DNA of 64,000 nucleotides from IMG/VR virus record IMGVR_UViG_3300021387_001477; one strand, written 5' to 3'. Positions 13,850 to 60,038 of this stretch are shown piece after piece. A program made the translations under genes and the position numbers. The notes under the pieces are model-generated. The model was not told the DNA's origin. It was given only the letters and a program-made list of their open reading frames with translations, and did no database searches. Every line of letters starts with the position of its first letter. Position 1 is the first letter of the stretch. Source of the stretch: a virus (Duplodnaviria > Heunggongvirae > Uroviricota > Caudoviricetes).

Positions 13850-14143
13850 CTTCTCTCTGGTTCTCTTATGAACTCCTGTATATTTCTATACAGATCAGAC
13901 TATATCTTCACCTCAATACCGAGGGCTTACCGTTTCCACTACACGAACTTTGTAGTGTACTCTCTTTCGAGATAGTCGTTGGGGTTTTGATACAGAGCTA
14001 GTTAGTCATACTAGCCTTAATTTTATAAATATTTATCAAAACCTGCTGATTGGCCTTATTCTTTGATTTCTTACGGAAGTGACTAAATCTTCTCGTACCA
14101 AAGACTTAACGGGCGTTTCCAGCATTTAGTAAGTTTATTTTTC
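13850..14143 (-). mobile_element. group I intron (family C-like) in polA; boundaries approximate
   Basis: CAACGACTATCTCGAAAGAGAGTACAC ... GAAGATATAGTCTGATCTGTATAGAAATATACAGGAGTTCATAAGAGAACC tail (tail duplicated at 14530-14570). Confidence 0.45.
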
Positions 14144-14144
14144 T

Positions 14145-14241
14145 TGGGATCACTCCCAAGCGATACTTAAATCTAATATCTTCGCCTTTATTAAACTTAT
14201 CAATCAAGTCGGGATCTCCGCTTGCGAAACCTGCAGCTTTT
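14145..14241 (-). CDS. polA exon fragment between motifs A and B (KAAGFASGDPDLIDKFNKGEDIRFKYRLGV...)
   Basis: Follows G of intron B3; resembles Klenow LLTAFAEGKDIH region; ends at 20-nt hairpin repeat CTTGGGAGTGATCCCAAG. Confidence 0.4.
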
Positions 14242-14509: not shown

Positions 14510-14741
<232 letters not shown>

Positions 14742-17423
14742 TTAGTTTTTCTTGGGATCACTCCCAAGTGACACCAATAATTTATTTTCAATGTCAAAAT
14801 AAGTTTCAATAAAGTCTTCATCTACTATATTCCCATTCTCGTCAATATGATATGGCGTTCGAACACAATCTTTAAAATCTGCATGACTAACCAAGACATG
14901 GAACGCACTAGACCACCTCTTTGAACTCTTTGTGTTGACCTCATAATGACAAAAGCATTTATGTACTGCTCCTGGCTCATTAGGGTCAGCTTCACGAATA
15001 GGAATATGTTTTTCGTCCTCAATTACCCACTTTCCCTCTTTCAGCATTCCATCAATATAGGTCGATAGAACCTTTGAATATTTTTTGAAGAGCAGATAAT
15101 TGATGACCATTTTTCTCATAAAATAGAATCTGTTATCAAAGTCAGATTCATTGAAGATCTTTCCATAATCTTCATATTGATCAGAAACATACTTAAAGAA
15201 CTGTTCCTGAGCGATATATCCATTAAAGTTACTCCACACCTCTTTTACCTGATCACATCCTAAGTCATTATAGAATTGATCAAACAGGACATATACTTTT
15301 TCTGGATAACTGGTTTGCCCTACTGGAGTTCCTTGATAAAGTTTTGTATAGTTCTCTCCAAAATGAGCAAATCCATCTTCAACTGTTTTTATACCGAGTT
15401 GTTCATAATATTTTTCTGCGCCTGGAAGTTGCTGCGCACTTTCAAACATTGCAGCGAGATATGCAGACTCGGTAGGATACAGTTGAGCAAATTCCAAACA
15501 GATCTCATCATTTTCAATGGGGGACTTACACTTAAAGAAGTTATCCGATACATAATCTGAATAACTAATTAAATCCCATTTTTGTCCAAATGCATAGATC
15601 TCTTGAGGAATGTTTTGTATGTCATTAAGTTGATTCTTTGAGACTTTCATTAACTCATTGAACGCTCTTTCATAATATAGATACTTCTCAAGCTCTATGT
15701 GTTTGTCATTTATCTTTATTTTATCTAGTCCGATTATAGGAATTAGTTTATCTCCCAAGACCTGTTGGATCTTCTTCTTTCCGCCAATTCCTGAATCAAT
15801 CTTAGACTTCAATACTTTCTGACCTGTTTTCTTATAGAGTTTTATCATTCCTACCTCTTCCATTGCTTCTCTTAGGACTTTCATAAAATTGGTAGCAAAG
15901 TCTGGACCATACTTCATTAATAATTGGCCCTCGTTTATACCAAGTTCATAAGCATCCATAGTATCAACATTAGAAGTCAGAAGATACTTAGCTATTTCAG
16001 CCGGATTTCCATTAAAGAAGGTATTATCATGCAGCAGTTTCTTGGCAATATCAGAATAATTATCTATATTTGCCATCTTTTTCTTGTGCTTATCCATCTT
16101 TATTTTACACCTAGCTTCACTACAAAACGTAATGCTCCACGCAATCATCTCTTTCGACTTCTTTTCATACTCCAATCTAAATGGCTCGTCAATATATAGG
16201 CCACAATTATGAAGTCTGGCGCCCAATCTTGCATTATCCATAAAGGTTCTAATACAATCTTCAGAGAATTTATCTTTCTCTACCAGATGTATCATAAGAG
16301 TATAGAAAGCGTCAAGATTACAATAATACCCTAATATTTCTGATGGAACACACATAAATGAACTCTTGTCCCAGTATTCAAGTATTAAAGCTTCAAATTC
16401 ATTTATATAACTTGGGTATCTTGCGCATATCTCAGCCCATTCCGGAGTTGTTTTAAAATCAGAGGGAGTAATTTTTAGAACTTTCTTCTTATCTTTCTTA
16501 AGTTTCCCTACTTCTTCATAAAACATGCTTTCAACAAGATCTGAGATTCTGTCAAACTCGGTATCCCAGACAGTAGCCTGAAGTATCATTTGGGCTGACC
16601 ACTTTAAGGAATATTTCTTTAAGTGATTTCCCTCAATGACATTATAAACAGACGCATCTATAAGATTATATAGGTCTACTCCAAACATTCTATGAGATAC
16701 GGCCTGTTCATATTGCATATTATAAGTTACAAGATGACTCTGCCTATGATTCAAAAAATCTCCAAATCTTTTACATATCATTCCGTATTGTTCAGGACTA
16801 CATGTATGTCTAAGATCTGTAAAACTTATAAATCCTCCGAAGTTTTTTGTACACAGTGATGCCCCAGATATATCAAACCATACATCCAAAGCCATACCAG
16901 ATGCCTCGAAGTCAAAGCCTAGGTCCTCAGTCTCTGGAAGATTACAAAGCCAGTCTAAAAATTTCATTGCTCCAGTAAAATCATGAATAACTTTACTTTG
17001 GAACCAGGAAAAATCAACGGGCTGTGTAAATCCTGGAGACATAAAATCTCTAATTATGTCTGGAGAAGGAGGATCTAGAACTACCTTAACAAAAGCTCCG
17101 CCCTCTATACTTAACCTTCGAAGTTTGGACACATCGAAGTAATTCTCTGACCTAACCCCAAAGTGATAGAACTGGTTTAGATATCGATAAGGTTCTGCCC
17201 CCACCAACATAACAGCATCACTTGGGCCTAATGTCAGAAACTCTCTTTTTGCATCATCGGACATAGATTCAATATTCTCAACCGTAAAGATCTGAGATGA
17301 ATCCAGCCCTATTCCATAATAATCCACCACGTAATTTGGTGTTTCTTTAGCTGAAATTAATACAAATCGTTTGTTCATAAATCTAAATATTAATATACCT
17401 TTGAGCCGATATCTTACATACAC
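14742..17423 (-). CDS. DNA polymerase A exon 1 (N-terminal region incl. 3'-5' exonuclease-like domain, no polymerase motifs A/B/C)
   Basis: 893-aa ORF; GFDFEASGMALDVWFD exo-like block; last codons overlap the 20-nt hairpin repeat so true 5' splice site may lie slightly upstream of the stop. Confidence 0.65.
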   Translation of the reverse strand: MYVRYRLKGILIFRFMNKRFVLISAKETPNYVVDYYGIGLDSSQIFTVENIESMSDDAKREFLTLGPSDAVMLVGAEPYRYLNQFYHFGVRSENYFDVSKLRRLSIEGGAFVKVVLDPPSPDIIRDFMSPGFTQPVDFSWFQSKVIHDFTGAMKFLDWLCNLPETEDLGFDFEASGMALDVWFDISGASLCTKNFGGFISFTDLRHTCSPEQYGMICKRFGDFLNHRQSHLVTYNMQYEQAVSHRMFGVDLYNLIDASVYNVIEGNHLKKYSLKWSAQMILQATVWDTEFDRISDLVESMFYEEVGKLKKDKKKVLKITPSDFKTTPEWAEICARYPSYINEFEALILEYWDKSSFMCVPSEILGYYCNLDAFYTLMIHLVEKDKFSEDCIRTFMDNARLGARLHNCGLYIDEPFRLEYEKKSKEMIAWSITFCSEARCKIKMDKHKKKMANIDNYSDIAKKLLHDNTFFNGNPAEIAKYLLTSNVDTMDAYELGINEGQLLMKYGPDFATNFMKVLREAMEEVGMIKLYKKTGQKVLKSKIDSGIGGKKKIQQVLGDKLIPIIGLDKIKINDKHIELEKYLYYERAFNELMKVSKNQLNDIQNIPQEIYAFGQKWDLISYSDYVSDNFFKCKSPIENDEICLEFAQLYPTESAYLAAMFESAQQLPGAEKYYEQLGIKTVEDGFAHFGENYTKLYQGTPVGQTSYPEKVYVLFDQFYNDLGCDQVKEVWSNFNGYIAQEQFFKYVSDQYEDYGKIFNESDFDNRFYFMRKMVINYLLFKKYSKVLSTYIDGMLKEGKWVIEDEKHIPIREADPNEPGAVHKCFCHYEVNTKSSKRWSSAFHVLVSHADFKDCVRTPYHIDENGNIVDEDFIETYFDIENKLLVSLGSDPKKN

Positions 17424-25593: not shown

Positions 25594-25665
25594 GATCCAT
25601 TAGTTCAACGATAGAACAACTGTCCCTAAAACAGCACGTTGTCGGTTTGAATCCGACATGGATCA
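25594..25665 (+). tRNA. tRNA with anticodon CUA (amber-suppressor-like; anticodon loop CCCUAAA with C33 and a 27-43 mismatch)
   Basis: GATCCAT-TA-GTTC-AACGATA-GAAC-A-ACTGT-CCCUAAA-ACAGC-ACGTT-GTCGG-TTTGAAT-CCGAC-ATGGATC-A; otherwise canonical 72-nt cloverleaf. Confidence 0.5.
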
Positions 25666-25702
25666 CAAAGGACCTAAAATCCTTATAAAAGAAAATAAAT
25701 AA

Positions 25703-29944: not shown

Positions 29945-30466
29945 ATGGATATTAATACTTTTTGGGGTTGGTTGTTTATAATCACTGCAGCATTGGTGTT
30001 GATTCAGTTGATTATGAGTATTATTAACGGGACGGACTTGGACATTGATCTAGACGGCGATGGTTTTGGAGACTTTGATCTTGGTACTATTGTCTCTCCG
30101 AAGGGTATTTTACATTTTATCTTCGGTGGGTCTGGATATCTTACTCTAATTGGTCCTGAAAAATGGAATGTCTGGGGTTATCTGATCGCAGTCTTGGTTG
30201 GTATCTTGGTGGCTGGTATCTTATTCTTAGTATATTGGGGGATGAGCAAGCTGGCGGACGAGAAGAAACAAGAGCCAGTGGAAAGTTTGGTTGGTAGATC
30301 TGGAAGCGTCTATCTTCCTATTTCCGGTGATAAGTATGAAATAACTATCACTAGGAATGGAAGACAGCAAAACATCACGGCGGTATCTAAATCAGGGAAG
30401 ACATATTCTACTGGCGATATTGTTACGGTGATTGAGGTTTCTGGAACAATTATTTATATTGACTAA
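29945..30466 (+). CDS. NfeD-like membrane protein (YqiJ-like): TM helices + C-terminal OB-fold
   Basis: Hydrophobic N-terminal half; C-terminal VGRSGSVYLPISGDKYEITITRNGRQQNITAVS; immediately upstream of SPFH gene. Confidence 0.5.
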   Translation: MDINTFWGWLFIITAALVLIQLIMSIINGTDLDIDLDGDGFGDFDLGTIVSPKGILHFIFGGSGYLTLIGPEKWNVWGYLIAVLVGILVAGILFLVYWGMSKLADEKKQEPVESLVGRSGSVYLPISGDKYEITITRNGRQQNITAVSKSGKTYSTGDIVTVIEVSGTIIYID

Positions 30467-30468
30467 AG

Positions 30469-31020
30469 ATGAAACAGTCACAATTTATAGGTTGGGTTAA
30501 AAAAGCATACCCAGATATAACAATTCAGAGACGAGATAATGGTGATTTCTGGCTTTCGGATTCTAGATATCTTCAGGTAATTGCAAGAACTGATAATATA
30601 ATTGAGTTCAGGAAGAATAAAAATAATAAACTTCCTGAACCTATGCTTGTTGAAGATGATGTCGAGATAGTAAATAATATTAGAGGTTTGTGGGGAGATC
30701 CTGGCGTTGCTTTCTCTCTTCCTCAACCACATAAAGCAGAAGTTGAGAAGAGAGAAGAGAGTAAATCAGAGCCGAGACATAAACAGCCTGAAAATAAAGA
30801 GGCACAAGATAGAGATTCGATTATACAGCTTCTTAAGGATACATTTCCAGGGCCGATCGAAGTAATTAAAGTGCCAGGAGGAAAGGCTGTGAAAGTTGGC
30901 GGCTCTAAATTAACTCTTTATGATTATGGCATTTCTTCAAAACCTAGTGAGTTTATTCCTTGGGCCAGAACAGAAGAGGTGAAACAATGTGTAACCAAAT
31001 TTATCTCCTTAAATAAATAA
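30469..31020 (+). CDS. hypothetical protein in NfeD-SPFH operon
   Basis: 183-aa ORF, 2-nt gaps to both neighbours. Confidence 0.45.
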   Translation: MKQSQFIGWVKKAYPDITIQRRDNGDFWLSDSRYLQVIARTDNIIEFRKNKNNKLPEPMLVEDDVEIVNNIRGLWGDPGVAFSLPQPHKAEVEKREESKSEPRHKQPENKEAQDRDSIIQLLKDTFPGPIEVIKVPGGKAVKVGGSKLTLYDYGISSKPSEFIPWARTEEVKQCVTKFISLNK

Positions 31021-31024
31021 CATT

Positions 31025-32992
31025 ATGAACAGTTTAACTACTATGCTGATCATTATTGCAGCAATTGTTGTAATGGTGATTCTGACTGTCTGGGGAATTC
31101 TCAGTCGGTACAAAAAGGTGAAGTCTGATGAGATCCTTGTGGTCTACGGTAAGACGAAAGGCAATTCTTCGGCAAAGTGCCTGCACGGAGGTAGTTCCTT
31201 CATATGGCCTATTATCCAGGGGGCTACCGTGATGTCAACTAAGCCAGTGACGATTCAGTGCAATCTTCAGGGAGCAATTTCTAGCCAAAAGATTAAGGTA
31301 AATGTTAACACAACAATTACCGCGGCGATATCTACTGTTCCTGAGATTATGCAGAATGCGGCTGTTCGTCTTTTAACGATGTCGCCGTCTGAGATTGAAG
31401 GACAAATTAAGGATGTTGCGTATGGACAGCTTCGTCTTATCATCGCTACACTAACTATTGAAGAGTTAGTGAATGACAGGGAAAAGTTCCTTCAGGCATG
31501 TAAGACTGGTATTGACGAAGAGCTGAAGAAATTTGGTCTGACTGTGCTCAATGTAAACTTGTCTGAGGTTTCCGACGAAGGGAACTATCTGGAGAATCTC
31601 TCTAGAGACGAGATCGCAAAAGCTGCCGCAGTAGCTGAGGCAAGTATTGCTGCCCGCGAAAAAGAGGGCGCCACAAGGACGGCAGATCAGAAAAAGCAGA
31701 AGGAGGTACAGCTCGCTCAGATTGAGAAGGACAAGCAGATTCAGGTTGCTGAAAACCAGTCTGAGCAGGCTACGCGCACTGCTGAGATCTCCAAAGAGAA
31801 GAATACTAAGGTCTCTGAGCAAAAGAAAGAGGAGACCGTAAGAATCCGTGAGATCCAGAAGGAGCAGAGCGTTGAGACTGCTAATCAGGAGCAGGAAGAG
31901 GCAATTAAGCTGGCCGAAATCGAGAAGATCAGAGAGGTTGAGATCGCAACCAAAGAGTCTGAACAAAAACAGGCAGTTGCAGAGCAGAACCGTCTTCGCG
32001 ATACTGTTATTGCTGAAAAGAAGGCTGCTACTGTATCTAGCGTAGCAAAAGCAGAAAATGATGCAGAAGCTACGAAGGCAGAAGCTGAAAAGGCTAAAGA
32101 GGCTCGTATTGTCGCTGCCGGACACCTGGCTGAACAGAATAAGAAGAAGGCAGAACAGGAGAGAGAAGCCGCTGAGTCTGAGTTTGAAAGTTCTCGTCGT
32201 CAAAGAGCGGCTGATGCTGAAAAGCAGGCAAAGATCAGCGAGAATAAAGCAGGTATTGAAGTAGCTAAGTCTGATGCTGTTCTTGGTAAGGAGAAAGCTG
32301 AGGCAGAGAAGGTCATTGGTGAATCTGAAGCCGCTGCTGAGAAGGCTATTGGTATCGCCAAGGCTCAGAAAGACAAAGAAGTTGCTCTTGCCCGCGCTGA
32401 AGCTAAGAGAGCAGAACTCGAAGCTGATCTGATCTCTGGCGCTGAGAAGGAAGCCGAGAGAAAGAAAGTGGAGGCTGAGGGTATCAAGAACAAGATCACG
32501 ATCGAGGCTGAGGCTGAGGCTGAGAAGATCCTGGCCATCGCAAAAGCAGAAGCAGAGAAGATTCGTCTCACTAAACTTGCTGAGGCTGAGGGTGAACTGA
32601 GAATGGCCGAAGTTAAGAAGGCTCTCGGTCAGGCAGAAACTGAGAATATCGCCAACATGGTCCGCGCCGGGCTTGGCGAAGCTGCTGCCATCTCCTTCAT
32701 TCTCAGAGATAAGTATGAGGGAATCATCGGTGCAGAGCAGGCCAAGTTCGAGCACATCAATCTCGGCGAAGTTAAGGTTGTCGGTGATGCTTCACAAGCC
32801 TCCAGTTTCCTTACCAAGATCGTCGACGGTGTTCAGAAGTCTAGTGTTCTTGGAGACCTGATTCCCGGACTTACTGGTCTTCTTGCTGCTGGTACAAAAT
32901 TCGACCAAAAGCAGTTGAACGGCACAAAGCCCGAAGATCCAAAACCGGACGATAAAGGCCCGAAAAACAACCCTAATTCTGAAGAAGAATAA
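31025..32992 (+). CDS. SPFH/band-7 flotillin-like protein (YqiK-like) with long Ala/Glu/Lys coiled coil
   Basis: N-terminal TM, SPFH block VVYGKTKGNS...IWPIIQGATVM...IKVNVNTTIT, then ~400 aa AEAEAEKI-type coiled coil. Confidence 0.7.
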   Translation: MNSLTTMLIIIAAIVVMVILTVWGILSRYKKVKSDEILVVYGKTKGNSSAKCLHGGSSFIWPIIQGATVMSTKPVTIQCNLQGAISSQKIKVNVNTTITAAISTVPEIMQNAAVRLLTMSPSEIEGQIKDVAYGQLRLIIATLTIEELVNDREKFLQACKTGIDEELKKFGLTVLNVNLSEVSDEGNYLENLSRDEIAKAAAVAEASIAAREKEGATRTADQKKQKEVQLAQIEKDKQIQVAENQSEQATRTAEISKEKNTKVSEQKKEETVRIREIQKEQSVETANQEQEEAIKLAEIEKIREVEIATKESEQKQAVAEQNRLRDTVIAEKKAATVSSVAKAENDAEATKAEAEKAKEARIVAAGHLAEQNKKKAEQEREAAESEFESSRRQRAADAEKQAKISENKAGIEVAKSDAVLGKEKAEAEKVIGESEAAAEKAIGIAKAQKDKEVALARAEAKRAELEADLISGAEKEAERKKVEAEGIKNKITIEAEAEAEKILAIAKAEAEKIRLTKLAEAEGELRMAEVKKALGQAETENIANMVRAGLGEAAAISFILRDKYEGIIGAEQAKFEHINLGEVKVVGDASQASSFLTKIVDGVQKSSVLGDLIPGLTGLLAAGTKFDQKQLNGTKPEDPKPDDKGPKNNPNSEEE

Positions 32993-33004
32993 AAAAAACA
33001 CGAT

Positions 33005-33035
33005 AAACAGAGGAGATTTACCTCTGTTTATTTTT
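33005..33035 (+). terminator. intrinsic terminator (AAACAGAGGAGATTTACCTCTGTTT + T-run)
   Basis: Hairpin plus TTTTT immediately after SPFH stop; next promoter follows. Confidence 0.6.
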
Positions 33036-33053
33036 CCGCCTATAAAGATTTTA

Positions 33054-33239
33054 TTGCCTTATATATGTAATAAAATAAACGAAACAATGAAAGAGAAATT
33101 TAAATTTATTGGTAGTATTATTAGTGATACTGCTGCCCTTGCTCTTATTGTAGCTGGGATTACCTTAGGAGTTCGACTTGGTGTTAAGCTCGGGAATACA
33201 ATTTCGGATACAATTGATAAGATCGGGAAGAAGCAGTAA
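33054..33239 (+). CDS. small membrane protein
   Basis: 61-aa ORF with one TM segment; promoter GCCTTATATATG 6 nt upstream region. Confidence 0.4.
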   Translation: MPYICNKINETMKEKFKFIGSIISDTAALALIVAGITLGVRLGVKLGNTISDTIDKIGKKQ

Positions 33240-33322
33240 ATCTATCTACCAGAACTAGAGAGAATATTCACTTTACGTGTGGGTATTCTCTTATTTTTCG
33301 AAACTATTAAAATAACAAAATC

Positions 33323-33841
33323 ATGGAAGAAAACAAAACAGCAACAATCATTATACTATCTATGGTGGTAATAATGATGATTTTGGGTATTAGAAATGAG
33401 CCCAAAGCGGAAATAGACCCAGATGCAAAATTCTGGATGGAAAACGAAATAGCGCTAAGAGATATGCGCACCTATATGGAAGAACATCCTGAAGAATTTA
33501 TGGATGAAGAAAACGTTACTTCCTATACGGTTACGGCAACAGTATACAATCCGGTGTCTAAACAGTGTGACTCTACTCCTCTTATTACGGCAGACTCAAG
33601 TAAAATTGACCTTACCAAATTAGAAAATGGTGAGATTAGGTGGATTGCAGTATCAAGAGACCTACTTGAGCACTTTAGTTATGGGGAGAAAGTCATGATA
33701 TCCGGACATGATGATATTTCAGGAATATATGAAATACACGACACAATGAATAGGCGGTACAGCAAATGTATAGATATTCTTATGCCTAGTTCAAAAACAA
33801 CCGGAAAATGGAAAAATGTAACGATTGAAAAAATAAATTAA
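33323..33841 (+). CDS. 3D-domain protein (MltA/RlpA-like cell-wall binding/hydrolase fold) with N-terminal TM anchor
   Basis: TATVYNPVSKQCDSTPLITADSS...IAVSRDLL...SGIYEIHDTMNRRYSKCIDILM (three conserved Asp pattern). Confidence 0.55.
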   Translation: MEENKTATIIILSMVVIMMILGIRNEPKAEIDPDAKFWMENEIALRDMRTYMEEHPEEFMDEENVTSYTVTATVYNPVSKQCDSTPLITADSSKIDLTKLENGEIRWIAVSRDLLEHFSYGEKVMISGHDDISGIYEIHDTMNRRYSKCIDILMPSSKTTGKWKNVTIEKIN

Positions 33842-33858
33842 AGGGGAGATTATCCTCT

Positions 33859-34320
33859 TTAATTTTTCTTCCATTCCTCTATATCTATTCCGTTTTCTCT
33901 AAAATATCTAAGAAGCTCTATTCTTTCACTACATGGATTGTCAGGAACCTCATACACCATCAATATTATCTCTGGCTCCTCTTGAAATCCCTCCGTCTGT
34001 TGTATAAAATCTGCCACCTTCTGTAAATAATCCATTATGTCAGAAAATTTCCAAGACCTAAGTCCCTTTGCATATGATCTCAGAAACCAACATTCTTCAG
34101 GATTTTTTACTTTACATGGACATCCTCCGGCATTACATCCTTCTGGGTTAAGTGCCTCAAACCTTATTCCATTCCATACATTATTTTGATCTTTCCACAC
34201 ATGATCTTTCCCTTTTCCGTCGTGAAACCACTTAGGATCCCACACGGCAGTTGATACAGGAATTTGCCAAGGCTTAAAGAAACGTATATTATAAAAATAG
34301 GAAGTATATATTTTCATCAA
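33859..34320 (-). CDS. hypothetical Cys/Trp-rich protein
   Basis: 153-aa ORF. Confidence 0.45.
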   Translation of the reverse strand: MMKIYTSYFYNIRFFKPWQIPVSTAVWDPKWFHDGKGKDHVWKDQNNVWNGIRFEALNPEGCNAGGCPCKVKNPEECWFLRSYAKGLRSWKFSDIMDYLQKVADFIQQTEGFQEEPEIILMVYEVPDNPCSERIELLRYFRENGIDIEEWKKN

Positions 34321-34965: not shown

Positions 34966-35316
34966 TTAATTTTTCTCAAATAGAAGAAAATCATTGTCAT
35001 AATCATACCCCACCAAATAACAACCAGACTTACATATTCTCCTAACCATACTATAAAGCCCGGTTGTTCTAAAGTTCACGGCTAATTTTGAATATCCCTT
35101 ATCTAGCATAAAAGCCAGAGTATTTTTTACAAACTTTTCTTCTAAGAAATATTTTGGAACATATAAGACATCATCTGGCAATTCTCTATTGTCTTTATCC
35201 CAAGGGTGGTAGAAGCACAGATAATAACATATATACTCTTCGATATTTGATGTTCCCGGCTCTTTTTCTGGTCTACCATCCGGATAATACTCTTTTCTTA
35301 ATTTATTGTTTAGCAT
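34966..35316 (-). CDS. hypothetical protein
   Basis: 116-aa ORF. Confidence 0.45.
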   Translation of the reverse strand: MLNNKLRKEYYPDGRPEKEPGTSNIEEYICYYLCFYHPWDKDNRELPDDVLYVPKYFLEEKFVKNTLAFMLDKGYSKLAVNFRTTGLYSMVRRICKSGCYLVGYDYDNDFLLFEKN

Positions 35317-36268
35317 CTTCGTCTAATTTGCCTATAGCTCCTTCTCCCAGGATCTCTACAATCTTATCAAGGGTCATGTCACAGTATTCATCAACCCAGG
35401 AGTCAATATAGTATAATTTATCTGAACCACATATTACACCAAAAAGAATCGGATCTCTTCTTCTCTCTTCCTCCTTCTTTTTCTGCGTCTCTGTCTTTTC
35501 TGTGGCTTTATTTTCTGGATCATAATGAAGAATAACGTAATTATCAAATACTCCTAATTGATCTGCCCTATCTTTTTTATCGGCAACAGAATCAGGAATT
35601 ATATGCACATAATTTTCTATATAATCCAAACTAAGGTCTCTAGAACATTTAGATTGAAGAGACTTTAAAGTACCAAGTGCTATATATCTGTTATAACCAC
35701 TAACACTAAGAATACTTTCGTATATATGAACTACAAGCCTCTTAAGTAACGACTCCTCATTGGCCTTCTGATGTAATCTTTGACTCTTTCTGATAAGGGA
35801 TAGGTATTCTTTTACCCTATTAATAAATTCTTGTTCTTTTCCAACCAGAACCTTTATCGTAGAGAAGACATCAGTGACATCAAGAATATAATTTTTTCTA
35901 AGCTTTCTTTCAGAAAAATATGATTTTATTTTTGAAATTACAGTCTTTATTCTTGACCTTTCTCTTCTTCCTCCTGAGTCAGAAATTAAAGGCTCTTCTC
36001 CCCACCAGTTATTATCTTTAGATAGTTTCCTTAGATAGTTGGAAATCACAACGTTAAATGTCCCAGCATCCTCACTTCTTACATAACTGTCGAAATCAAT
36101 TGTAGTAAGGTCTGGGAAATCAACTTTACCTACTGTATTTTCATATACAAGATCATCAGGATAACTATTTTCAGCAGGGGCACTTTTCTTTAAACTAAGT
36201 CTTTTGTATTTAAGCAGTTCTTTATCAGTCACCCACCTAAGCTCTTCATTTATATTTCTTACTTTCAT
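35303..36268 (-). CDS. hypothetical protein
   Basis: 321-aa ORF; promoter CATATATAAG at 36271-36280. Confidence 0.5.
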   Translation of the reverse strand: MKVRNINEELRWVTDKELLKYKRLSLKKSAPAENSYPDDLVYENTVGKVDFPDLTTIDFDSYVRSEDAGTFNVVISNYLRKLSKDNNWWGEEPLISDSGGRRERSRIKTVISKIKSYFSERKLRKNYILDVTDVFSTIKVLVGKEQEFINRVKEYLSLIRKSQRLHQKANEESLLKRLVVHIYESILSVSGYNRYIALGTLKSLQSKCSRDLSLDYIENYVHIIPDSVADKKDRADQLGVFDNYVILHYDPENKATEKTETQKKKEEERRRDPILFGVICGSDKLYYIDSWVDEYCDMTLDKIVEILGEGAIGKLDEDAKQ

Positions 36269-36336
36269 AACATATATAAGAAATTGCGCTTCAGGAGTTT
36301 CTATTTCTTTATTTATGAATTAAATTAAAACAAACA

Positions 36337-37887
36337 ATGCTAAAAGAAAAAGTATTATATTCATTGCGGGATATTTCTATAATTCCCGCAGTATCGACTA
36401 GTATTAGATCAAGAAAAGAATGTGACCCCTATAGAAAAAGTATAGAGGGAGAACCCGGATGGTACCCTTTGATTGCCTCTCCTATGGACTCTGTTATGGA
36501 TGATACGAATTGGAAATATTACTGGGATAATAAAATATCCTGTGTTATTCCAAGATCTATCCCACAGAGTTACCAAGAAAAAGGGTATGAGGATGGAGGA
36601 TATGAGGCTTGGTTTGAAGAAAGGAGAAAATTATGCTCTAAGGTATTTTGTGCATTTAGTTTGAAGGAAGCTAAGTGGTTCCTGGATAACTCTTATGACT
36701 ATAGTGATAAAAGCTTTAGTGATGGCCTGAGGATTTATGTCTTAATTGATATAGCCAATGGTAGTATGCAAGAGGAGATAGACCTTGGAAAAGAACTAAA
36801 GAGGAAGTATGGAGAAGGAATAATATTAATGGGAGGAAATATTGGAAATCCCCAGACGTACCTTCTTTATGATCAAGCCGGGTTTGATTTTCTTAGAGTG
36901 GGAATCGGAAGCGGACAGGGGTGTTTAGCCGGAAATACTAAAATTCCCATGTCTGATGGAACTACAAAGAATATAAAGGACTTAGTTGTTGGCGATCATA
37001 TTAAGACTATTACAGGAGACCAAAGAGTCAATGAGATTATACAAAATACCTCTGATCAGTTAGTAACAATAAATAAAGAACTGACATGTACACCAAATCA
37101 TAAATTATTTGTAATTGACAAAGACAACGGGGATCTAGTGACTAAAGAAAATATAATTTCCTTAGGACATTATGTAGAGGCTGGAGACCTAGATAAGGGG
37201 AAACATTTATTAGTCAAATTAAAGACGGAAAATTTAAAGGAAAAACTTAATAACAATATAGGATTTAATAACCCCTATAAAGCAATGGATTTTAGGCTTG
37301 AAGAAATAACCTCAATAGAAAAGATTGAAAAAGCCGTATCTACGTTTGATATAGTAGTTTCCGGAGAAGAGCACTCATTTATTACAGAGGATGGATATAT
37401 CGTTCACAACTGCCTAACTTCCACCTCAACGGCAATCCACTATCCTTACGCATCTCTGATAAGTGAAATATCTGAAATGAAGGATAGATATCATAGTCAC
37501 TGTAAAATTATAGCCGATGGAGGAATGGCATGGTATAGCGATATAATTAAGTCTCTTGCCCTTGGTGCTGATTATGTTATGTGTGGAAAAATATTCTCAC
37601 AGGCAGCAAAGACACCAGAAGAAGTAGGCCAGACATTGGTATATCGAGGAATGTCTACTAAAGCTGCTCAGGCTGGGATGGGGAATACAGGAACTCTTAA
37701 GACCGCCGAAGGAAAGAGTATGGAAGTCGTGAAGGAATATACTCTCTCGGGGTGGACGGAAAACTTTGATTCTTATCTCAGAAGTGCTATGTCCTATTGT
37801 GACTCTAGATCATTGAAAGAATTTAGGGAAAAGGCCATATGTCAGGTTATCTCTCCGAACGCCTCTTCACAAATAAATAATAAATAA
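36337..37887 (+). CDS. GMP reductase/IMP dehydrogenase-family (GuaC-like) protein interrupted by a mini-intein
   Basis: VGIGSGQG-C[intein]-LTSTSTAIHYPYASLISEI and IIADGGMAWYSDIIKSLALGADYVMCG match IMPDH/GuaC active-site loop and ADGG/ALGA motifs; extein ~353 aa. Confidence 0.6.
   Translation: MLKEKVLYSLRDISIIPAVSTSIRSRKECDPYRKSIEGEPGWYPLIASPMDSVMDDTNWKYYWDNKISCVIPRSIPQSYQEKGYEDGGYEAWFEERRKLCSKVFCAFSLKEAKWFLDNSYDYSDKSFSDGLRIYVLIDIANGSMQEEIDLGKELKRKYGEGIILMGGNIGNPQTYLLYDQAGFDFLRVGIGSGQGCLAGNTKIPMSDGTTKNIKDLVVGDHIKTITGDQRVNEIIQNTSDQLVTINKELTCTPNHKLFVIDKDNGDLVTKENIISLGHYVEAGDLDKGKHLLVKLKTENLKEKLNNNIGFNNPYKAMDFRLEEITSIEKIEKAVSTFDIVVSGEEHSFITEDGYIVHNCLTSTSTAIHYPYASLISEISEMKDRYHSHCKIIADGGMAWYSDIIKSLALGADYVMCGKIFSQAAKTPEEVGQTLVYRGMSTKAAQAGMGNTGTLKTAEGKSMEVVKEYTLSGWTENFDSYLRSAMSYCDSRSLKEFREKAICQVISPNASSQINNK
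36922..37410 (+). mobile_element. mini-intein (163 aa, no homing-endonuclease domain) in the catalytic Cys loop of GuaC-like protein
   Basis: Begins CLAGNTKIPMSDGTTKNIKDLVVGDHI (Hint block A), ends ...FITEDGYIVHN followed by extein Cys. Confidence 0.6.
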
Positions 37888-38177
37888 TGGAAATAACGCC
37901 AGAATTACTAAAACTCTTTCCAAAATATATGAGATGGAAAGATGAGATCACACTAAAAGAATCTGGATTTCATTTCTTTGATCCAGAGACATTAGTTATA
38001 CTTAGAATTAATGTAGAGAAAGATGGCAGAATAAGAGTATGCCTTGTTCCTGGGAGCGATAACACAATACGATATGCTACTCCTGAAGAAAAAGAAAAAT
38101 TTTATAGCCAGTCTAATGTTGTATATCTAGATAAAGACGAAATATCTGATTTTTATAGACATGAACACGCTAACTGA
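37887..38177 (+). CDS. hypothetical protein
   Basis: 96-aa ORF. Confidence 0.45.
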   Translation: MEITPELLKLFPKYMRWKDEITLKESGFHFFDPETLVILRINVEKDGRIRVCLVPGSDNTIRYATPEEKEKFYSQSNVVYLDKDEISDFYRHEHAN

Positions 38178-38646
38178 TTTACTTAGAGAATTATCAAAAA
38201 TATCAAAAGTAGAGGGATTACGACTAAGGTCTTGGGCACATGGTGAAGTTTTTCTATCTTCGTACACCAAAGATAAAATTGTATGTAAGAATTTGGGAGG
38301 GGAAGTTTTTGAATATGATGAAAATGGAAAAATACACCCCGCCGGAATGACAGTACTATATCCTTGGGAAGGAGATTGGCAGAAATTCCTTAAGAAAGCC
38401 TATGAAGACTGGGACATGCAAAATCTAAAAGATGGAGAAATATGTTTGGTTAAGAGAGAATATTTAGCTCCGTGGATTTTGGCAGTCTATTCATATCGAC
38501 TTGATGGAAAGATTTATGCCAAGACGGGAAAAGAAAATGAAACTTTTGAGTGGTGTATATCTTGGTTAGGAAATAAAGACTACCTTGGAAGAGAAAGTTT
38601 CCCGGATTGGATAGATCCTGGAGTTGAAGAAATGAAGGAGAGTTAA
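38161..38646 (+). CDS. hypothetical protein
   Basis: 161-aa ORF. Confidence 0.45.
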   Translation: MNTLTDLLRELSKISKVEGLRLRSWAHGEVFLSSYTKDKIVCKNLGGEVFEYDENGKIHPAGMTVLYPWEGDWQKFLKKAYEDWDMQNLKDGEICLVKREYLAPWILAVYSYRLDGKIYAKTGKENETFEWCISWLGNKDYLGRESFPDWIDPGVEEMKES

Positions 38647-38736: not shown

Positions 38737-39468
38737 TTATTCTACAACTCTAGCACCGTGATACTCGACAGCCTCCTTGAAAATCTTAAGACTTTCTGCA
38801 GATTCGTCTATAGTAGCCATGCAAGAATCGAGGAAAACAAGTTTATTTTCATACATCGAAGAGAATACCATATCTCTTACGGTTCTAGCCACGCAAACAT
38901 CCTTAGCTACCCCAGCCACATAGATTTCATCATACTCATTGAAGAGATTTACAGGATAATCGTTTGTGAACATTGAGAAGCATTCAACATATGGATTCAA
39001 ACCTTTCTGGAGAATTCCATAAGATTTCTGAAGTCCATAATCAATCTGACGGTCATTCAGTGCTTTAATCAAGGAGTCGGGGAATGCCCAACCCCAAGAA
39101 CCGAGGATACAGTGTTCTGGCCAAATTGTAATTCCACCATTAGATTTTGCCTGATTGATGAGAAGCTCAGTGCGGCCTGAATCGGAATTGTTTCCAAAAC
39201 AGGGAACACAACGTCCTTTTTCAATGTCCTCAGCCATAATCTTCTGGAACTCCTGTAGTTTGTCTTCGGTTTTCCAAAAACAGGCATGGCCAAGGTTATA
39301 TCTATAGTGAGAATCCTGTGTGAGAATAATATCAATATCTTCTTTTATATTCTTAACGAAGCTAATGATATTCTCAACAGCCTTATCCCCTCCGTTTACA
39401 TAGAGACTTCCTTTAGGGTCTACGAAATCGTTTTGGGGATCTACGATGAGAAGCAGTTTCTTAGGCAT
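38737..39468 (-). CDS. pncA: isochorismatase-family hydrolase, nicotinamidase (PncA)-like
   Basis: LLLIVDPQNDF...; catalytic Cys context VAGVAKDVCVARTVRD; adjacent to pncB-like gene. Confidence 0.5.
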   Translation of the reverse strand: MPKKLLLIVDPQNDFVDPKGSLYVNGGDKAVENIISFVKNIKEDIDIILTQDSHYRYNLGHACFWKTEDKLQEFQKIMAEDIEKGRCVPCFGNNSDSGRTELLINQAKSNGGITIWPEHCILGSWGWAFPDSLIKALNDRQIDYGLQKSYGILQKGLNPYVECFSMFTNDYPVNLFNEYDEIYVAGVAKDVCVARTVRDMVFSSMYENKLVFLDSCMATIDESAESLKIFKEAVEYHGARVVE

Positions 39469-39881: not shown

Positions 39882-41111
39882 TTATAGAGATATTCCAAGT
39901 TCAGTAGCTGCTCTCTGGAGTTCCGCTTCGTCTCCCATATGTTTCCCCAGATCGTCGGAGAGCTTTATACATTTTCTCCAATCCTCTCTTTCGCTAATTC
40001 TAACACTATCAAGTTTCATGACAATATTAGACGGCTTGAATTGTTCAATATTTCCGCAAAGATTTGTTCCAATACCAAACGAACACCTAATTCCCTTTCC
40101 GTCACAATATTGTTTTACTGTAACTGCTTTAGGAAAATCTAGTGCATTAGAGAATACTATAGTCTTTGTTCTGGGATCTATTCCAAGCTCACGATATCTT
40201 GCTATAGCTTTATCTACGAACTCAAATTCGTCTCCACTATCCTGTCGTATGGAATTGAAGAGGTTTGCATGTTTCTTTGAGAAATTCTTGAAGAATATAT
40301 CACTTCCAAATGTATCAGTGAGCATACACCCTAAATCACCATGATATACATCTGACCAACCCTCCATAACGATATAATTGGCCATTCGATATCCAAAGAA
40401 AGATGCAACTGCCATAACGACCTCATGTGCTAATGTTCCGATGGGCTTGAGACCATATTTCATAGCAAGATAGCAATTACTAGTTCCAGTACAATTATTT
40501 TTCCCTGAACCAGTTGCTAAAGTCTTCATAACATAATCCTGAACCTTAAAGCTTGATCTTCTCCTAGTTGAGAAATCTGCAACCTTAAGCTCATTGTCAT
40601 TCATTATAGTAATCTTCCGATCTAAGTTTTTCTTTACAATATCTAAATCATCAGACTCCCCTTGAACTTCATGATAAAGCTCTGAGACTAAAGCTAGGAT
40701 TGGTACCTCATAGAATGTCACCTTATATAGAAGATCACATACTGTAATATTAAGGTGTCCAGAATCATCCAGTTTTGCGCTAACCTTCTTTGGATCAAAT
40801 CTAAATCCTTTAAGCCACTCCCAATAGAATTGAGGAATATACTTAATAGTTTTCTTAGCCCACTCAAATTCTTCATCCTTCAGGGCCAGTTTTTCTAGAT
40901 TCTGTATCTCTTCGTTTAAACGCTCGATAAACTCTTCACTGTATACTCTATTATCTCTATCTTTAAATTTGAAAACACCTTCCGCCTCCGGATAGGTCTT
41001 CATATAAAAATAGCTCATAGAGAACTTATATAAATCATTATCTAAAATAGATACTATAAATTTATATTCTTTCATCTTATTTATAAGGATTTTAGTATGC
41101 TTCAAACTCAA
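39882..41111 (-). CDS. pncB: nicotinate phosphoribosyltransferase (PncB)-like
   Basis: N-terminal LDNDLYKFSMSYFYMKTYPEA ~ NAPRTase TDLYKxTM motif; ~400 aa as expected. Confidence 0.55.
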   Translation of the reverse strand: MSLKHTKILINKMKEYKFIVSILDNDLYKFSMSYFYMKTYPEAEGVFKFKDRDNRVYSEEFIERLNEEIQNLEKLALKDEEFEWAKKTIKYIPQFYWEWLKGFRFDPKKVSAKLDDSGHLNITVCDLLYKVTFYEVPILALVSELYHEVQGESDDLDIVKKNLDRKITIMNDNELKVADFSTRRRSSFKVQDYVMKTLATGSGKNNCTGTSNCYLAMKYGLKPIGTLAHEVVMAVASFFGYRMANYIVMEGWSDVYHGDLGCMLTDTFGSDIFFKNFSKKHANLFNSIRQDSGDEFEFVDKAIARYRELGIDPRTKTIVFSNALDFPKAVTVKQYCDGKGIRCSFGIGTNLCGNIEQFKPSNIVMKLDSVRISEREDWRKCIKLSDDLGKHMGDEAELQRAATELGISL

Positions 41112-57173: not shown

Positions 57174-57206
57174 AGAGGGATTTAATTTCCCTCTTTCTTC
57201 TTTTTA
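57174..57206 (+). terminator. bidirectional intrinsic terminator (AGAGGGATTTAATTTCCCTCT + T-run)
   Basis: Hairpin between convergent genes. Confidence 0.55.
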
Positions 57207-58615
57207 GTCTCTATTACAAATTTTTTCCAGGTTTTTAAGAAATTATTTGTTTTTATGTCTGTTATTATTTGGTTTCCCTTAAGATATGCTTGTTGAATTC
57301 TTATATCATATGTGAGTTCTACTGTTACATAAGATTTTTCCGGATTAGATTTTCTCCTCATAAAGAATATCATAGTTTCCCCTCTTGATACTCTACTCCA
57401 GTATGAAGCTACACAATTATGTTGCTGCAATGCCTCATCCGTGATATCATTCCGGTTCTCTACAGATCTTATAAAGAACTCATCATCTTCAAAGTTATAT
57501 TTTTTACACTCACTTATGATCTTTAGTGCGTCCAGGTCTTCTCTTTTTCTCCTTTCTTCCTCTAACTTAATTTGATTTTCACGATATAATTCAGCCACCA
57601 TATCATGATTTTGAATAAGATATTCTGGAGACTTATCAAATTTTATACCAAGCTCATCACACATTCTTTTATAATCCATGATCGTGTGAATGCTTATAAA
57701 TATATTACTGCCAAAAGTCTTTTTTAGATATTCTATGCACTTAGTGAACCAGATATATGGAGTTTTTAAATCATTTCCAAAATGCATTATTAGATAATGA
57801 TCTTTACTAAATGCGTCTCCTTTAATATTGAAATATCCTAAGTCTTTTCTCGTAAGTCCAGATTCAGCATACCACTTATATTCCTTCTCTGATATATTGT
57901 GAAGTTGAGAGATAAGACGAAGAAAATGACACCGCTCCAAGTCTGCGTCTTTGAGGTCTGGGAGAGCATAATTGGGAACCTTTAGAATAGACCTTGGATT
58001 TGTTCCCTTCATATTGCACAACCCTCTGATAGTTTTTATATTAAAGTCTTTCCCAGAGTCAATTATATCTTTTGCTAGCTTATATCCAGCTTTATAGAGA
58101 ATTTCTATCTTAGGAAAGCATATTCCAAGGAGCATATTCTGTTTATGCTCTTTAAGAAATTTATAAAGATATGGTTCATGTTCCTTAACCAAGTCCTCCA
58201 AGTCCTTCTTATCTTGGATAAAATCACTTTTTAGTAAGAATTTTTTATAACTCCCAGAAAAACTCGTGGGGGATTTATAACACCATACCTCATAGTCCGA
58301 CCAGCCATCGGGATTGCGGTAATGTTTTGCTATATTAATGCACGTTTCGTTCAGACAAAAGCTTGATTTAGCCTTGTCCCATGATATAGAGAAGCCCCTT
58401 AGCCATAGATTAGTATTGCATTCAAAGTTCTCGGAATATGGATTAATATATAAATTATCGTCGCTGATATAAAACTCCCCCACTCTTGGGGTTTTCCCCT
58501 TTCCTCTTGTATACTTCTGGAGACTATAGTTGTCTTTAAAGACCCTAATTTTTGATAAATCTATGTCCTCAGATACACTTGCTGTAACATCAAGTTTATA
58601 TTTTCTCACGCTCAT
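57182..58615 (-). CDS. hypothetical protein, paralog A (C-terminal domain possibly PcfJ-like)
   Basis: C-terminus HNCVASYWSRVSRGETMIFFMRRKSNPEKSYVTVE shared with next gene. Confidence 0.45.
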   Translation of the reverse strand: MSVRKYKLDVTASVSEDIDLSKIRVFKDNYSLQKYTRGKGKTPRVGEFYISDDNLYINPYSENFECNTNLWLRGFSISWDKAKSSFCLNETCINIAKHYRNPDGWSDYEVWCYKSPTSFSGSYKKFLLKSDFIQDKKDLEDLVKEHEPYLYKFLKEHKQNMLLGICFPKIEILYKAGYKLAKDIIDSGKDFNIKTIRGLCNMKGTNPRSILKVPNYALPDLKDADLERCHFLRLISQLHNISEKEYKWYAESGLTRKDLGYFNIKGDAFSKDHYLIMHFGNDLKTPYIWFTKCIEYLKKTFGSNIFISIHTIMDYKRMCDELGIKFDKSPEYLIQNHDMVAELYRENQIKLEEERRKREDLDALKIISECKKYNFEDDEFFIRSVENRNDITDEALQQHNCVASYWSRVSRGETMIFFMRRKSNPEKSYVTVELTYDIRIQQAYLKGNQIITDIKTNNFLKTWKKFVIETKKKKEGN

Positions 58616-60038
58616 ATCTCTCTATCTTTCTTTCAATTTTATCCCGATAGTTTATATAGCATTTCCACTCTTTAAGGAAATCTTGCGCAGGTTTGTTGTC
58701 TATTGATCTATTCCCGTGCATTAAGGCCTGGCGGATAGAGCCGGACTGATATTCTATGGTTATATATGATTTCTCAGGGGCAGTTATTTTTCGCATAAAG
58801 AAAATCATAGTCTCTCCCCTTGATACTCTATTCCAATATGAAGCTACACAGTTACTTTGTTGCTGCCCTTCATCTATGATATCCGGCTGACTTCTTACAC
58901 AACGGATGAAGAAATCACAGCCATCATACTCATACCTCTTCATGGCATCAATCCTGGCCTTAGCCTTCCTGTCCTCTTCGATCTTCATGTTATTTCTCTT
59001 TATTTCTGACACTCTTGTATGCTCTTCCCAGAAATATTTCGGATTTTCACCAACTTTGACATTGAGGTTATCACAGTCCTTGAGATAGTCTGCCAGTTGT
59101 CTATGCATTGTTGAGAGGTTATCTATACCGTGTGATTTAAAATCAATCTTAGAGAAGTACTTAAAATACCATAGATAAGGAGTTTTAGTTACTCTTCTCA
59201 TAGCGGTATAGAAATTTTGAGATTCATTTTGGTTATCTCCTCCATCGGGATTCCAGAATTCCTGTATCACCGGAGTAACTTTTAGTCCCAAGTCCCATAT
59301 ATAATTTACCTCAGCCTCTTGGATTCGATAATATCTAGTTAATGTTCGATATTTATATACTTCCTCCAATGGTAAAGATTTTATTTTCTTTAGTGCATAG
59401 TATGGAAGATCTATTATGGTTCTGGGGCTAGTTCCTTTTCCTTTAGATCCACTACATAATCCCCTCACTTCTTTTATTCTGAAATCATCACCTTCCACTA
59501 TTCTTTCGGCAAATTTATATCCTGCCTTATAAAGAATCTCCACCTTAGAAAATAGAAGTGCTTTTCTGAGATCAAAATTATTATCTACACAGAATTGATA
59601 GAGATATGGACTAATACTCTTAACCATATCACCAAGGACCTCATTACTTTGAAGACACGTAAAAGGTTCAAGCTCAGACCATAAGAAATTTCCGTTTCCA
59701 AAGGATAAGTATGTCGGAGCTTTCATTATATCAACGGAGTAATAATATTCTGTTCCTTCCTTGTGTTTAGATATCTTATAGAATAGCCTATTAATACTTC
59801 CGTCTTTGGATATAAGATACTGTCTCGGCGCTTGTTCTAAATCTGACAACGAGTCGTAAAATTCCTTCTCATCCTTCACTGAAATACAGCCATCTTTTAT
59901 TTTTCCTGGCTTATATTTACCACCCGAATAGATCACTAAGATGTCTTCTAGAAGTAAGTCTAAGGAAATATCTTTAGCACCTGGAATTTTTTCTAGAGCT
60001 TTATTAGTAAAATTTAATTTTATTTTTGCATCTATCAT
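58596..60038 (-). CDS. hypothetical protein, paralog B (C-terminal domain possibly PcfJ-like)
   Basis: C-terminus SNCVASYWNRVSRGETMIFFMRKITAPEKSYITIE; also shared internal KAGYK.A..I blocks. Confidence 0.45.
   Translation of the reverse strand: MIDAKIKLNFTNKALEKIPGAKDISLDLLLEDILVIYSGGKYKPGKIKDGCISVKDEKEFYDSLSDLEQAPRQYLISKDGSINRLFYKISKHKEGTEYYYSVDIMKAPTYLSFGNGNFLWSELEPFTCLQSNEVLGDMVKSISPYLYQFCVDNNFDLRKALLFSKVEILYKAGYKFAERIVEGDDFRIKEVRGLCSGSKGKGTSPRTIIDLPYYALKKIKSLPLEEVYKYRTLTRYYRIQEAEVNYIWDLGLKVTPVIQEFWNPDGGDNQNESQNFYTAMRRVTKTPYLWYFKYFSKIDFKSHGIDNLSTMHRQLADYLKDCDNLNVKVGENPKYFWEEHTRVSEIKRNNMKIEEDRKAKARIDAMKRYEYDGCDFFIRCVRSQPDIIDEGQQQSNCVASYWNRVSRGETMIFFMRKITAPEKSYITIEYQSGSIRQALMHGNRSIDNKPAQDFLKEWKCYINYRDKIERKIERYEREKI

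Follow-up and report, generated by a model that had tools for sequence, protein, structure and literature searches.

The DNA analyzed here is a 64,000-nt stretch of a virus of the Caudoviricetes (IMG/VR record IMGVR_UViG_3300021387_001477), which we refer to as the window. One of its genes encodes a putative enzyme of the IMP dehydrogenase (IMPDH)/GMP reductase (GMPR) superfamily whose reading frame is interrupted at the active site by an insert with the features of a mini-intein. An earlier note, made without database searches, had placed a mini-intein in the open reading frame (ORF) 36337-37887; this ORF, the insert length of 163 aa and the protein strings quoted there were all confirmed in the sequence.

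The 516-aa precursor is composed of a 195-aa N-extein, the 163-aa insert, and a 158-aa C-extein, and reads ...LRVGIGSGQG + CLAGNTKIPMSDG...VGDHI...EDGYIVHN + CLTSTSTAIHYPY... across the junctions. With 32% GC the insert differs from the exteins (38-41%). Exactly the same 516-aa precursor is present on 3 independent public contigs, one of which is 317,399 nt long, and hence the interrupted gene reflects neither coincidence nor a fault of assembly. From the sequence, the precursor is predicted to weigh 57.9 kDa, the intein 18.2 kDa, and the spliced product 39.7 kDa, the last being close to the ~39 kDa estimated before. The predicted spliced-junction peptide is VGIGSGQGCLTSTSTAIHYPYASLISEISEMK. 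Coordinates of the gene, its parts and other features are given in Table 1.

Table 1. Positions of the intein gene, its sequence elements, the fractured orthologue on contig L002 and further features (window positions unless L002 is named; aa numbers refer to the precursor)
Feature	Position	Strand	Evidence or remark
Precursor gene	36337..37887	+	516 codons, ATG start, TAA stop; ORF list and sequence
N-extein, aa 1-195, end ...LRVGIGSGQG	36337..36921	+	569/585 nt identical to the intein-free allele in L001; protein alignment
Mini-intein, aa 196-358, 163 aa, 18.2 kDa	36922..37410	+	exact 489-nt in-frame indel relative to L001
Cys1 (aa 196), block A nucleophile for N-S acyl shift	36922..36924	+	column C1 invariant in intein alignment
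Block B T-P-N-H (aa 252-255), TxxH motif	37090..37101	+	T57 and H60 invariant in intein alignment
20-aa linker TENLKEKLNNNIGFNNPYKA (aa 297-316)	37225..37284	+	only large gap relative to IMPDH-1 and to the cis inteins P0011 and P0022
Met317 codon, counterpart of the C-intein/C-extein gene start in split relatives	37285..37287	+	P0121, L002:1957, and L003:646 all begin MDFRLEEI
Block F FDIVVSGEEHSFI (aa 337-349), with Asp338 and His346	37345..37383	+	D143 and H151 near-invariant in intein alignment
Block G YIVHN (aa 354-358), penultimate His357, terminal Asn358	37396..37410	+	V161, H162, and N163 invariant in intein alignment
Cys+1 (aa 359), splice-junction nucleophile and catalytic cysteine of the enzyme	37411..37413	+	aligned to IMPDH 1vrd and human GMPR1 2ble
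C-extein, aa 359-516, begins CLTSTSTAIHYPY	37411..37884	+	460/477 nt identical to L001 (474 nt plus stop codon)
L002 N-half, 299 aa, ends HLLVKLENDN and stop	L002 19-918		
L002 middle ORF, 357 aa	L002 908-1981	+	overlaps both halves
L002 C-half, 199 aa	L002 1957-2556		starts at the Met equivalent to window Met317
ORF directly upstream of the intein gene	35303-36268	-	PHROG 10081 'transposase', E 7.9e-12
Isochorismatase-family (nicotinamidase-like) gene	38737-39468	-	E 2.6e-12
Nicotinate phosphoribosyltransferase gene	39882-41111	-	E 7.9e-51
502-aa ORF	10386-11891	+	HNH_3 motif, E 9e-7
Short exon-like ORFs	11913-12323, 12896-13183		
Four group I introns	12308-12572, 12677-12942, 13876-14185, 14564-14800	-	Rfam, 53.6-78.9 bits, gathering score 50
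893-aa ORF	14742-17423		no Pfam match
tRNA with anticodon CTA	25594-25666	+	ARAGORN label 'Pyl'; within tRNA cluster
Region of raised GC	30001-34000		0.42 compared with ~0.35 elsewhere
655-aa SPFH/Band_7 protein gene	31025-32992		within the region of raised GC
Tandem paralogous ORFs, ~480 aa each	57182-58615, 58596-60038	-	C-terminal PcfJ-like domain, E 1.7e-23 and 1.9e-20

The insert and its intein-free allele

A search with the in silico spliced extein yielded 1898 homologues, nearly all of which are 325-360 aa long and lack an insert; in the best 120 of these the insert is absent from 115. The best homologue, P0001, is intein-free, shares 98% protein identity and has exactly the predicted spliced length of 353 aa. 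It is carried on a 96.6-kb contig (L001) on which the gene order around the gene is that of the window. The extein DNA of the two loci is 97% identical, and one clean in-frame indel of 489 nt separates them. The junction reads ...GGACAGGGC|TGCCTAACT... in L001, where the empty site includes GGAAGCGGACAGGGCTGCCTAACTTCTACC, and ...GGACAGGGG|TGTTTAGCC...GTTCACAAC|TGCCTAACT... in the window. The same insertion site is also filled in P0011, P0022, P0030, P0122, P0142, P0183, and P0268. No match to window positions 36000-38200 was obtained by blastn in the INPHARED phages, and the relatives found there at the protein level are distant (31-40% identity), namely Lak phages, LR75xxxx huge phages, and the crAss-like phage cr108_1. 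The transposase-like ORF upstream of the intein gene also adjoins the intein-free allele in L001 and is thus unlinked to the presence of the intein.

In the precursor, the Pfam IMPDH domain is recognized in two stretches (E 1e-25, 90.9 bits; cut-off 25.6 bits). In silico removal of the insert results in a single colinear stretch, in which residues 135-345 correspond to profile positions 120-337 (E 3.4e-31, 109 bits). The spliced form furthermore matched PHROG 9582 (E 4.7e-47), a family that PHROGs names only 'dehydrogenase'.

Analyzed on its own, the insert scored above the cut-offs of the Pfam models Intein_splicing (PF14890; 36.0 vs 35.8 bits, E 7.6e-9) and Vint (PF14623; 30.5 vs 27 bits) and of the intein_Nterm model TIGR01445 (25.6 vs 24.5 bits). 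The set of class-1 splicing residues is complete (C196, T252-P-N-H255, D338, H346, H357-N358, and C359), and these positions are invariant or nearly so in 11 relatives. The AlphaFold2 model of the insert reached a mean predicted local distance difference test score (pLDDT) of 88.9 and a predicted template modeling score (pTM) of 0.82, residues 101-122 excepted. The 10-residue blocks across residues 101-120 average pLDDT values of 56 and 45, and the sole segment below 50, intein residues 107-120, lies within the linker. A Foldseek search of the Protein Data Bank (PDB) with this model gave 57 matches at E<=1e-3. Among the matches listed, 50 out of 50 were HINT-fold domains, mostly inteins (at the top Prp8, TvoVMA, gp41-1, and DnaB; also RecA), plus bacterial intein-like (BIL) and hedgehog domains. 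Both the profiles and the predicted fold thus agree with the Hint domain that had been proposed from the letters. The proposed lack of an endonuclease domain also held: Pfam, NCBIfam, and PHROGs detected no nuclease domain in the insert, be it LAGLIDADG, HNH, or other, and the model consists of a HINT core and the disordered 20-aa linker. At 163 aa the insert is too short to accommodate a nuclease domain, and with no nuclease match it classifies as a mini-intein.

Canonical mini-inteins such as gp41-1, the Ssp DnaB mini-intein, and the Mtu RecA mini-intein share with it the HINT fold (template modeling (TM) score 0.6-0.8), the class-1 residues and a length of ~130-170 aa. They are likewise inserted at catalytic motifs, with a functional residue serving as +1 nucleophile. 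In contrast to them, the window intein has a family-specific extension of ~35 aa after block B and the disordered linker, and sequence identity is only 13-22%.

Both intein and exteins are under strong purifying selection, as expected if splicing is required. The ratio of nonsynonymous to synonymous substitution rates (dN/dS) of the exteins relative to L001 is 0.09. For the intein, compared with its closest sequenced relative, the split intein on contig L002, it is ~0.07 (pN 0.175, pS 0.73), a value that is approximate only because dS is saturated. Given the intact splicing residues, dN/dS of ~0.07-0.09 and the homology to IMPDH-1, a proven splicer, the insert is a class-1 mini-intein that is probably active in splicing.

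The host enzyme and its catalytic cysteine

The extein loop VGIGSGQG-C-LTSTSTAIHYP was aligned to IMPDH of T. maritima (1vrd) and to VGVGPGSV-C-TTRTKTGVGYP of human GMPR1 (2ble). Cys+1 falls on the catalytic cysteine of the GxGPGSxCTTR loop in both structures, and hence the +1 nucleophile of the intein is the catalytic cysteine itself. This agrees with the earlier note, which had placed the insert at the catalytic-cysteine loop, and the extein halves align colinearly with IMPDH and GMPR. In 31 family members this cysteine (C196 of the intein-free numbering) is invariant. The model of the intein-free protein has a pLDDT of 85.6, and its only internal low-confidence segment, residues 193-203, is the mobile catalytic loop. 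With a HINT domain placed within this loop, the unspliced precursor should be inactive and enzyme function would depend on splicing.

Several features place the host closer to GMPR than to IMPDH. The family profile matches CBS-less GMPR-type/IMPDH chains over their full length (3r2g, 1e-30; B. anthracis GMPR 1ypf, 9e-30; human GMPR2, 2e-29), and the extein model shows TM scores of ~0.75 to IMPDH catalytic domains and GMPR in Foldseek. The C-extein motifs IIADGG, YRGMST, and TAEGK were aligned to GMPR, the Glu of the last motif corresponding to that of 'ASEGK' in GMPR; K292, T293, E295, and G296 are invariant in the same 31 members. Between YRGMST...TAEGK and FYGMSS...ASEGK of human GMPR1 a single one-residue gap is sufficient, whereas IMPDH requires insertions. 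The Arg-Tyr dyad is missing from this segment of the phage protein, as is the CBS domain from the protein as a whole, whose mature length is 353 aa.

In common with GuaC/GMPR1-2 (TIGR01305/TIGR01306) and GuaB, the phage enzyme has the TIM barrel, the catalytic Cys loop, the ribose-binding Asp of IIADGG, the YxGMS purine motif, and the Glu of 'EGK'; the lack of a CBS domain and the presence of only a short flap are GMPR-like. It differs from these enzymes by an identity of only ~20-30%, by CLTS instead of the canonical CTTR in the loop, and by a family-specific insertion at residues 77-130. Judged by these motifs, the host would be a GMP-reductase-like enzyme that presumably reduces GMP, and its substrate could differ. 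'GuaC-like' seems a fair label, though the protein is not a GuaC equivalog by the NCBIfam cut-offs.

Downstream of this gene, the isochorismatase-like and nicotinate phosphoribosyltransferase genes form an NAD-salvage pair beside the nucleotide enzyme. The pair is kept in L001 and L005.

Relatives of the intein and the phage context

Dassa et al. 2009 (PMC2677866) described 'fractured genes' in ocean and lake metagenomes of the Global Ocean Sampling (GOS) data, among them IMPDH encoded as two genes with split-intein halves and with a free-standing Vsr-like homing endonuclease in between. In their model a nuclease-less contiguous intein comes first and is then invaded by a free-standing endonuclease. 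The split intein IMPDH-1 of this lineage was characterized by Carvajal-Vallejos 2012 and Pinto 2020 (PMC7090010) and is now a standard fast split intein; the sequence used here was taken from the supplement of the latter study.

BLASTP aligned the window intein with IMPDH-1 from end to end (residues 1-163, 32% identity, E 2e-20). The sole large gap spans 20 residues and is located exactly at the natural split point of IMPDH-1, where ...KHLLIELE | MKFKLKEITSIE... of IMPDH-1 faces ...KHLLVKLK-TENLKEKLNNNIGFNNPYKA-MDFRLEEITSIE... of the window. The two inteins share the extension NH.(F/Y)VIDK...V..(E/D)N......(W/Y)(V/I).A..LD..KHLL and reside in the same active-site loop of the same host superfamily. 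In contrast to the split IMPDH-1, the window intein is contiguous, in one uninterrupted ORF and with no adjacent endonuclease: the ORFs flanking the intein gene contain no nuclease domain. The insertion sites differ as well. IMPDH-1 interrupts GGG|SIC with Ser+1, whereas the window intein interrupts GIGSGQG|C with the catalytic Cys as Cys+1, which is two residues further downstream in aligned loops of equal length. Finally, the host in the window belongs to a more divergent GMPR-like subfamily from gut jumbo phages, while IMPDH-1 originates from aquatic samples.

A word-indexed search with the intein alone found only P0121, and an exhaustive HMMER search, which identified 334 proteins, was needed to show the family. 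Junctions of the IMPDH/GMPR-hosted members were anchored by BLAST, and an allele was counted as split if its N-half ended within 12 residues of ...HLL(I/V)K.. (6 N-halves of unassigned site and one C-half are omitted from the counts). At the site of the window (GxGxGxx|C) 28 split N-halves stand against 7 contiguous alleles, and at the IMPDH-1 site (GxGxG|C...HN|SIC) 17 against 3. Split alleles thus outnumber contiguous ones by ~4-6 to 1 at both sites, with the fractured state represented by 45-51 N-half clusters. Contiguous inteins at the Ser+1 site (GxGxG|C...HN|SIC) are P0213, P0225, and P0238; those at the Cys+1 site (GxGxGxx|C...HN|C) include P0122, P0142, P0183, and P0268 besides that of the window (36922-37413). 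The contiguous form is therefore the minority state of one intein family that occupies two adjacent sites. That the two insertion points lie two codons apart would imply a short ectopic hop accompanied by a change of nucleophile (G|SIC with Ser+1, xx|C with Cys+1). Literature searches for inteins in IMPDH or GMP reductase retrieved only the IMPDH-1 split-intein lineage.

The closest relatives of the window intein are split: the N-halves P0098/L002 (70-76% aa identity) and P0119 (67%), and the C-half P0121 (84%), which begins MDFRLEEITSIE. On the contig of P0098 (L002) a fractured orthologue was found whose exteins are 90% identical to those of the window. The middle ORF of L002 is located exactly at the position of the window's linker, as seen in a DNA block alignment, and its final 8 codons share their DNA with the beginning of the C-intein gene, which is read in a different frame. 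At its C-terminus it weakly matches DUF559 (20.1 vs 20.6 bits) and REase_MTES_1575 (E 4.5e-4). Both families are Vsr/PD-(D/E)xK-like, in line with the endonuclease family of Dassa et al., and make the ORF a candidate member of the latter. Homologous ORFs precede the C-halves on L003 and L004. Window, L001, and L002 accordingly represent a contiguous mini-intein, an empty site, and a split intein with a free-standing Vsr-like candidate endonuclease in orthologous, syntenic loci. Read in another frame, the linker of the window gives ...PIKQW next to ...KIKQW of the endonuclease, a borderline resemblance to the 3' part of the L002/L003 gene.

GC content is 35% in the window, which contains four group I introns and eight tRNAs and uses the standard genetic code. 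Homologues are located on contigs of 317-408 kb, and distant protein relatives occur in Lak and other huge phages. For the recently described Jug (jumbo gut) phages of Bacteroides/Phocaeicola (PMC12880540), group I introns are noted as frequent, along with stand-alone endonucleases and 26 'Intein_splicing' proteins; the main text of that description says nothing of an IMPDH/GMPR intein. These phages share with the window and the homologue contigs an abundance of short group I introns, use of the standard code, stand-alone homing endonucleases and 'Intein_splicing' proteins. The features of the window thus match those of the Jug phages, as a resemblance and not as an assignment to this clade.

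Selfish elements elsewhere in the window, as assumed before, were found in the form of the four Rfam group I introns. These follow one another between the short exon-like ORFs and the 893-aa ORF, which looks like one large gene in at least five exons; the exon peptides suggest a candidate polymerase. The 502-aa ORF with the HNH_3 motif adjoins this intron-rich gene and is a candidate free-standing homing endonuclease. TAG recoding of the intein gene was considered and rejected, as the statistics of the ORFs are those of the standard code, and the gene is free of internal stops and terminates in TAA. Although a tRNA that reads the amber codon is present, 13 out of 90 long ORFs of the window end in TAG. 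The PcfJ-like paralogues and the GC rise spanning the SPFH/Band_7 protein gene complete the features listed in Table 1.

Splicing, alternative explanations, and significance

We conclude with good confidence that the gene encodes the 57.9-kDa precursor of a GMPR-like TIM-barrel enzyme that carries a contiguous class-1 mini-intein of the IMPDH-1 family between Gly195 and the catalytic cysteine. Splicing would start with an N-S acyl shift by Cys196 at the Gly195-Cys196 bond, aided by Thr252 and His255 of block B. The thiol of Cys359, later the catalytic Cys, would then attack the thioester to give a branched intermediate, and cyclization of Asn358, assisted by His357 and by Asp338/His346 of block F, would free the 18.2-kDa intein. 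A final S-N shift is predicted to yield a native Gly-Cys peptide bond and hence the 353-aa, 39.7-kDa enzyme, its loop GIGSGQG-CLTST being intact. Lacking a nuclease, the intein is probably maintained through vertical inheritance and through recombination when phages co-infect a cell. Its presence would also disrupt the sequence targeted by the Vsr-like free-standing endonuclease found inside the same intein in relatives.

Some observations weigh against parts of this interpretation. On the full precursor the Intein_splicing model PF14890 reached only 31.6 bits and remained below its cut-off of 35.8, and the intein_Cterm model TIGR01443 scored 13.2 with a cut-off of 15.6. For the host, the GMPR and IMPDH equivalog models of NCBIfam gave scores of 79-91 bits with cut-offs of 344-492 (PRK05458, 91 vs 344; TIGR01306, 86.8 vs 465.65; TIGR01305, 78.9 vs 492.15). 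As to the presumed mode of spread, no co-conversion tract was seen near the junction between window and L001, where mismatches amount to ~4 per 100 nt compared with 3.1% overall. In addition, tblastn with the L002 endonuclease ORF gave nothing significant in the window (best E 0.61).

The low C-terminal score, together with the BIL and hedgehog domains among the fold matches and the indirect nature of the evidence for splicing, could also fit an intein that has decayed and no longer splices, or an autoprocessing domain of the BIL type, with the gene being a pseudogene or a source of cleaved fragments. We regard this as very improbable, since all class-1 catalytic residues including Cys+1 are intact, purifying selection on intein and exteins is strong, the homologue IMPDH-1 is a proven splicer, and a conserved catalytic motif as insertion site in combination with empty alleles is typical of true inteins rather than of BILs. 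Slightly less improbable, but still very unlikely, is that the insert acts as a conditional switch. A redox or other cue, e.g. a disulfide between Cys1 and Cys+1 or between Cys1 and Cys250, would then gate splicing and time the GMPR-like activity during infection. Some archaeal and bacterial inteins are known to splice under disulfide control, Cys1, Cys+1, and a cysteine close to block B (LTCTPNH) are all present, and with an insertion at the catalytic Cys the precursor must be inactive. However, no regulation-specific feature is apparent in the sequence, any such regulation would be dispensable given that 115 of the 120 best homologues are intein-free, and relatives such as IMPDH-1 splice fast and constitutively. 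Moreover, the likely hosts are gut Bacteroides/Phocaeicola, as suggested by the resemblance to Jug phages, and their environment is a reducing one.

A third explanation refines rather than replaces the contiguous IMPDH-1-family intein proposed above, as it adds a direction of evolution. The intein may be a re-fused split intein that arose from a fractured ancestor like L002 by deletion of the endonuclease ORF and in-frame joining of the halves, the 20-aa linker being the scar of this event. We consider this quite possible, if somewhat short of an even chance. All nearest relatives of the intein are split, and the linker lies exactly where L002 holds its 357-aa ORF and is missing from the next-closest cis inteins P0011 and P0022, but other cis relatives (P0122, P0213, and P0268) have unrelated linkers. 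At the nucleotide level, Met317 and 8 of the 9 nt before it match the start region of the C-half on L003, and 15 of the 24 nt upstream of the Met317 ATG are identical to the 3'-end of the L003 endonuclease gene (binomial P ~3e-4); the endonuclease frame reads LITPIKQWILGLKK and a stop codon in the window and LLTKIKQWISDLKK and a stop codon in L003, with two synonymous differences. Without the 9 nt beside the ATG, where bases could be conserved for other reasons, the upstream match weakens to P ~0.08. Likewise, KEKLNNNIGF of the linker resembles KEKFAKNKGF of the endonuclease and only 8 of 500 shuffles scored as high as the local DNA alignment to L002, but the similarity is not significant for L003 and L004 (reached by 358-368 of 500). 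The reverse order fits equally well: an endonuclease that later invaded a linker-bearing mini-intein would correspond to the transition from step I to step II of Dassa et al. 2009, and the window intein could then be the ancestral nuclease-less contiguous state of their model. That three states of one site have been captured with the linker as the scar of a deleted endonuclease, and thus a natural reversal of gene 'fracture', appears to us possible but a little less probable than the re-fusion as such.

Inteins at catalytic residues of nucleotide-metabolism enzymes are to be expected, and IMPDH-type hosts have been known since 2009, which makes the bare finding an ordinary one. As a contiguous relative of the known IMPDH-1 split intein (PMC2677866), the insert does not establish IMPDH-type hosts as a new intein target. 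New is that it represents a contiguous, Cys+1, site-shifted homologue of the characterized IMPDH-1 split intein in a family most members of which are split. The kinship with IMPDH-1, the shift of the site by two residues, and the empty and fractured orthologous loci were points missed by the earlier note. Since IMPDH-1 is among the fastest split inteins in protein engineering, its natural single-chain relative with Cys+1 and a presumably tolerated 20-aa linker at the split site is of interest in this field, the more so as the empty allele and the split allele with its endonuclease occur in almost the same genomic surroundings.

The interest of the locus rests mainly on the coexistence of empty, contiguous, and fractured alleles at one orthologous position. 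This set of three alleles is a natural test bed for two questions. The first, framed by the 'gene-breaking' model (Dassa 2009), is how contiguous inteins give rise to split ones, or split ones become contiguous again. The second is whether an intein without a nuclease can endure because it protects its host gene from a free-standing homing endonuclease. For the annotation of gut jumbo phages it means that, unless the intein states are recognized, genes of this family will be mistaken for fragments or for over-long 'dehydrogenases'.

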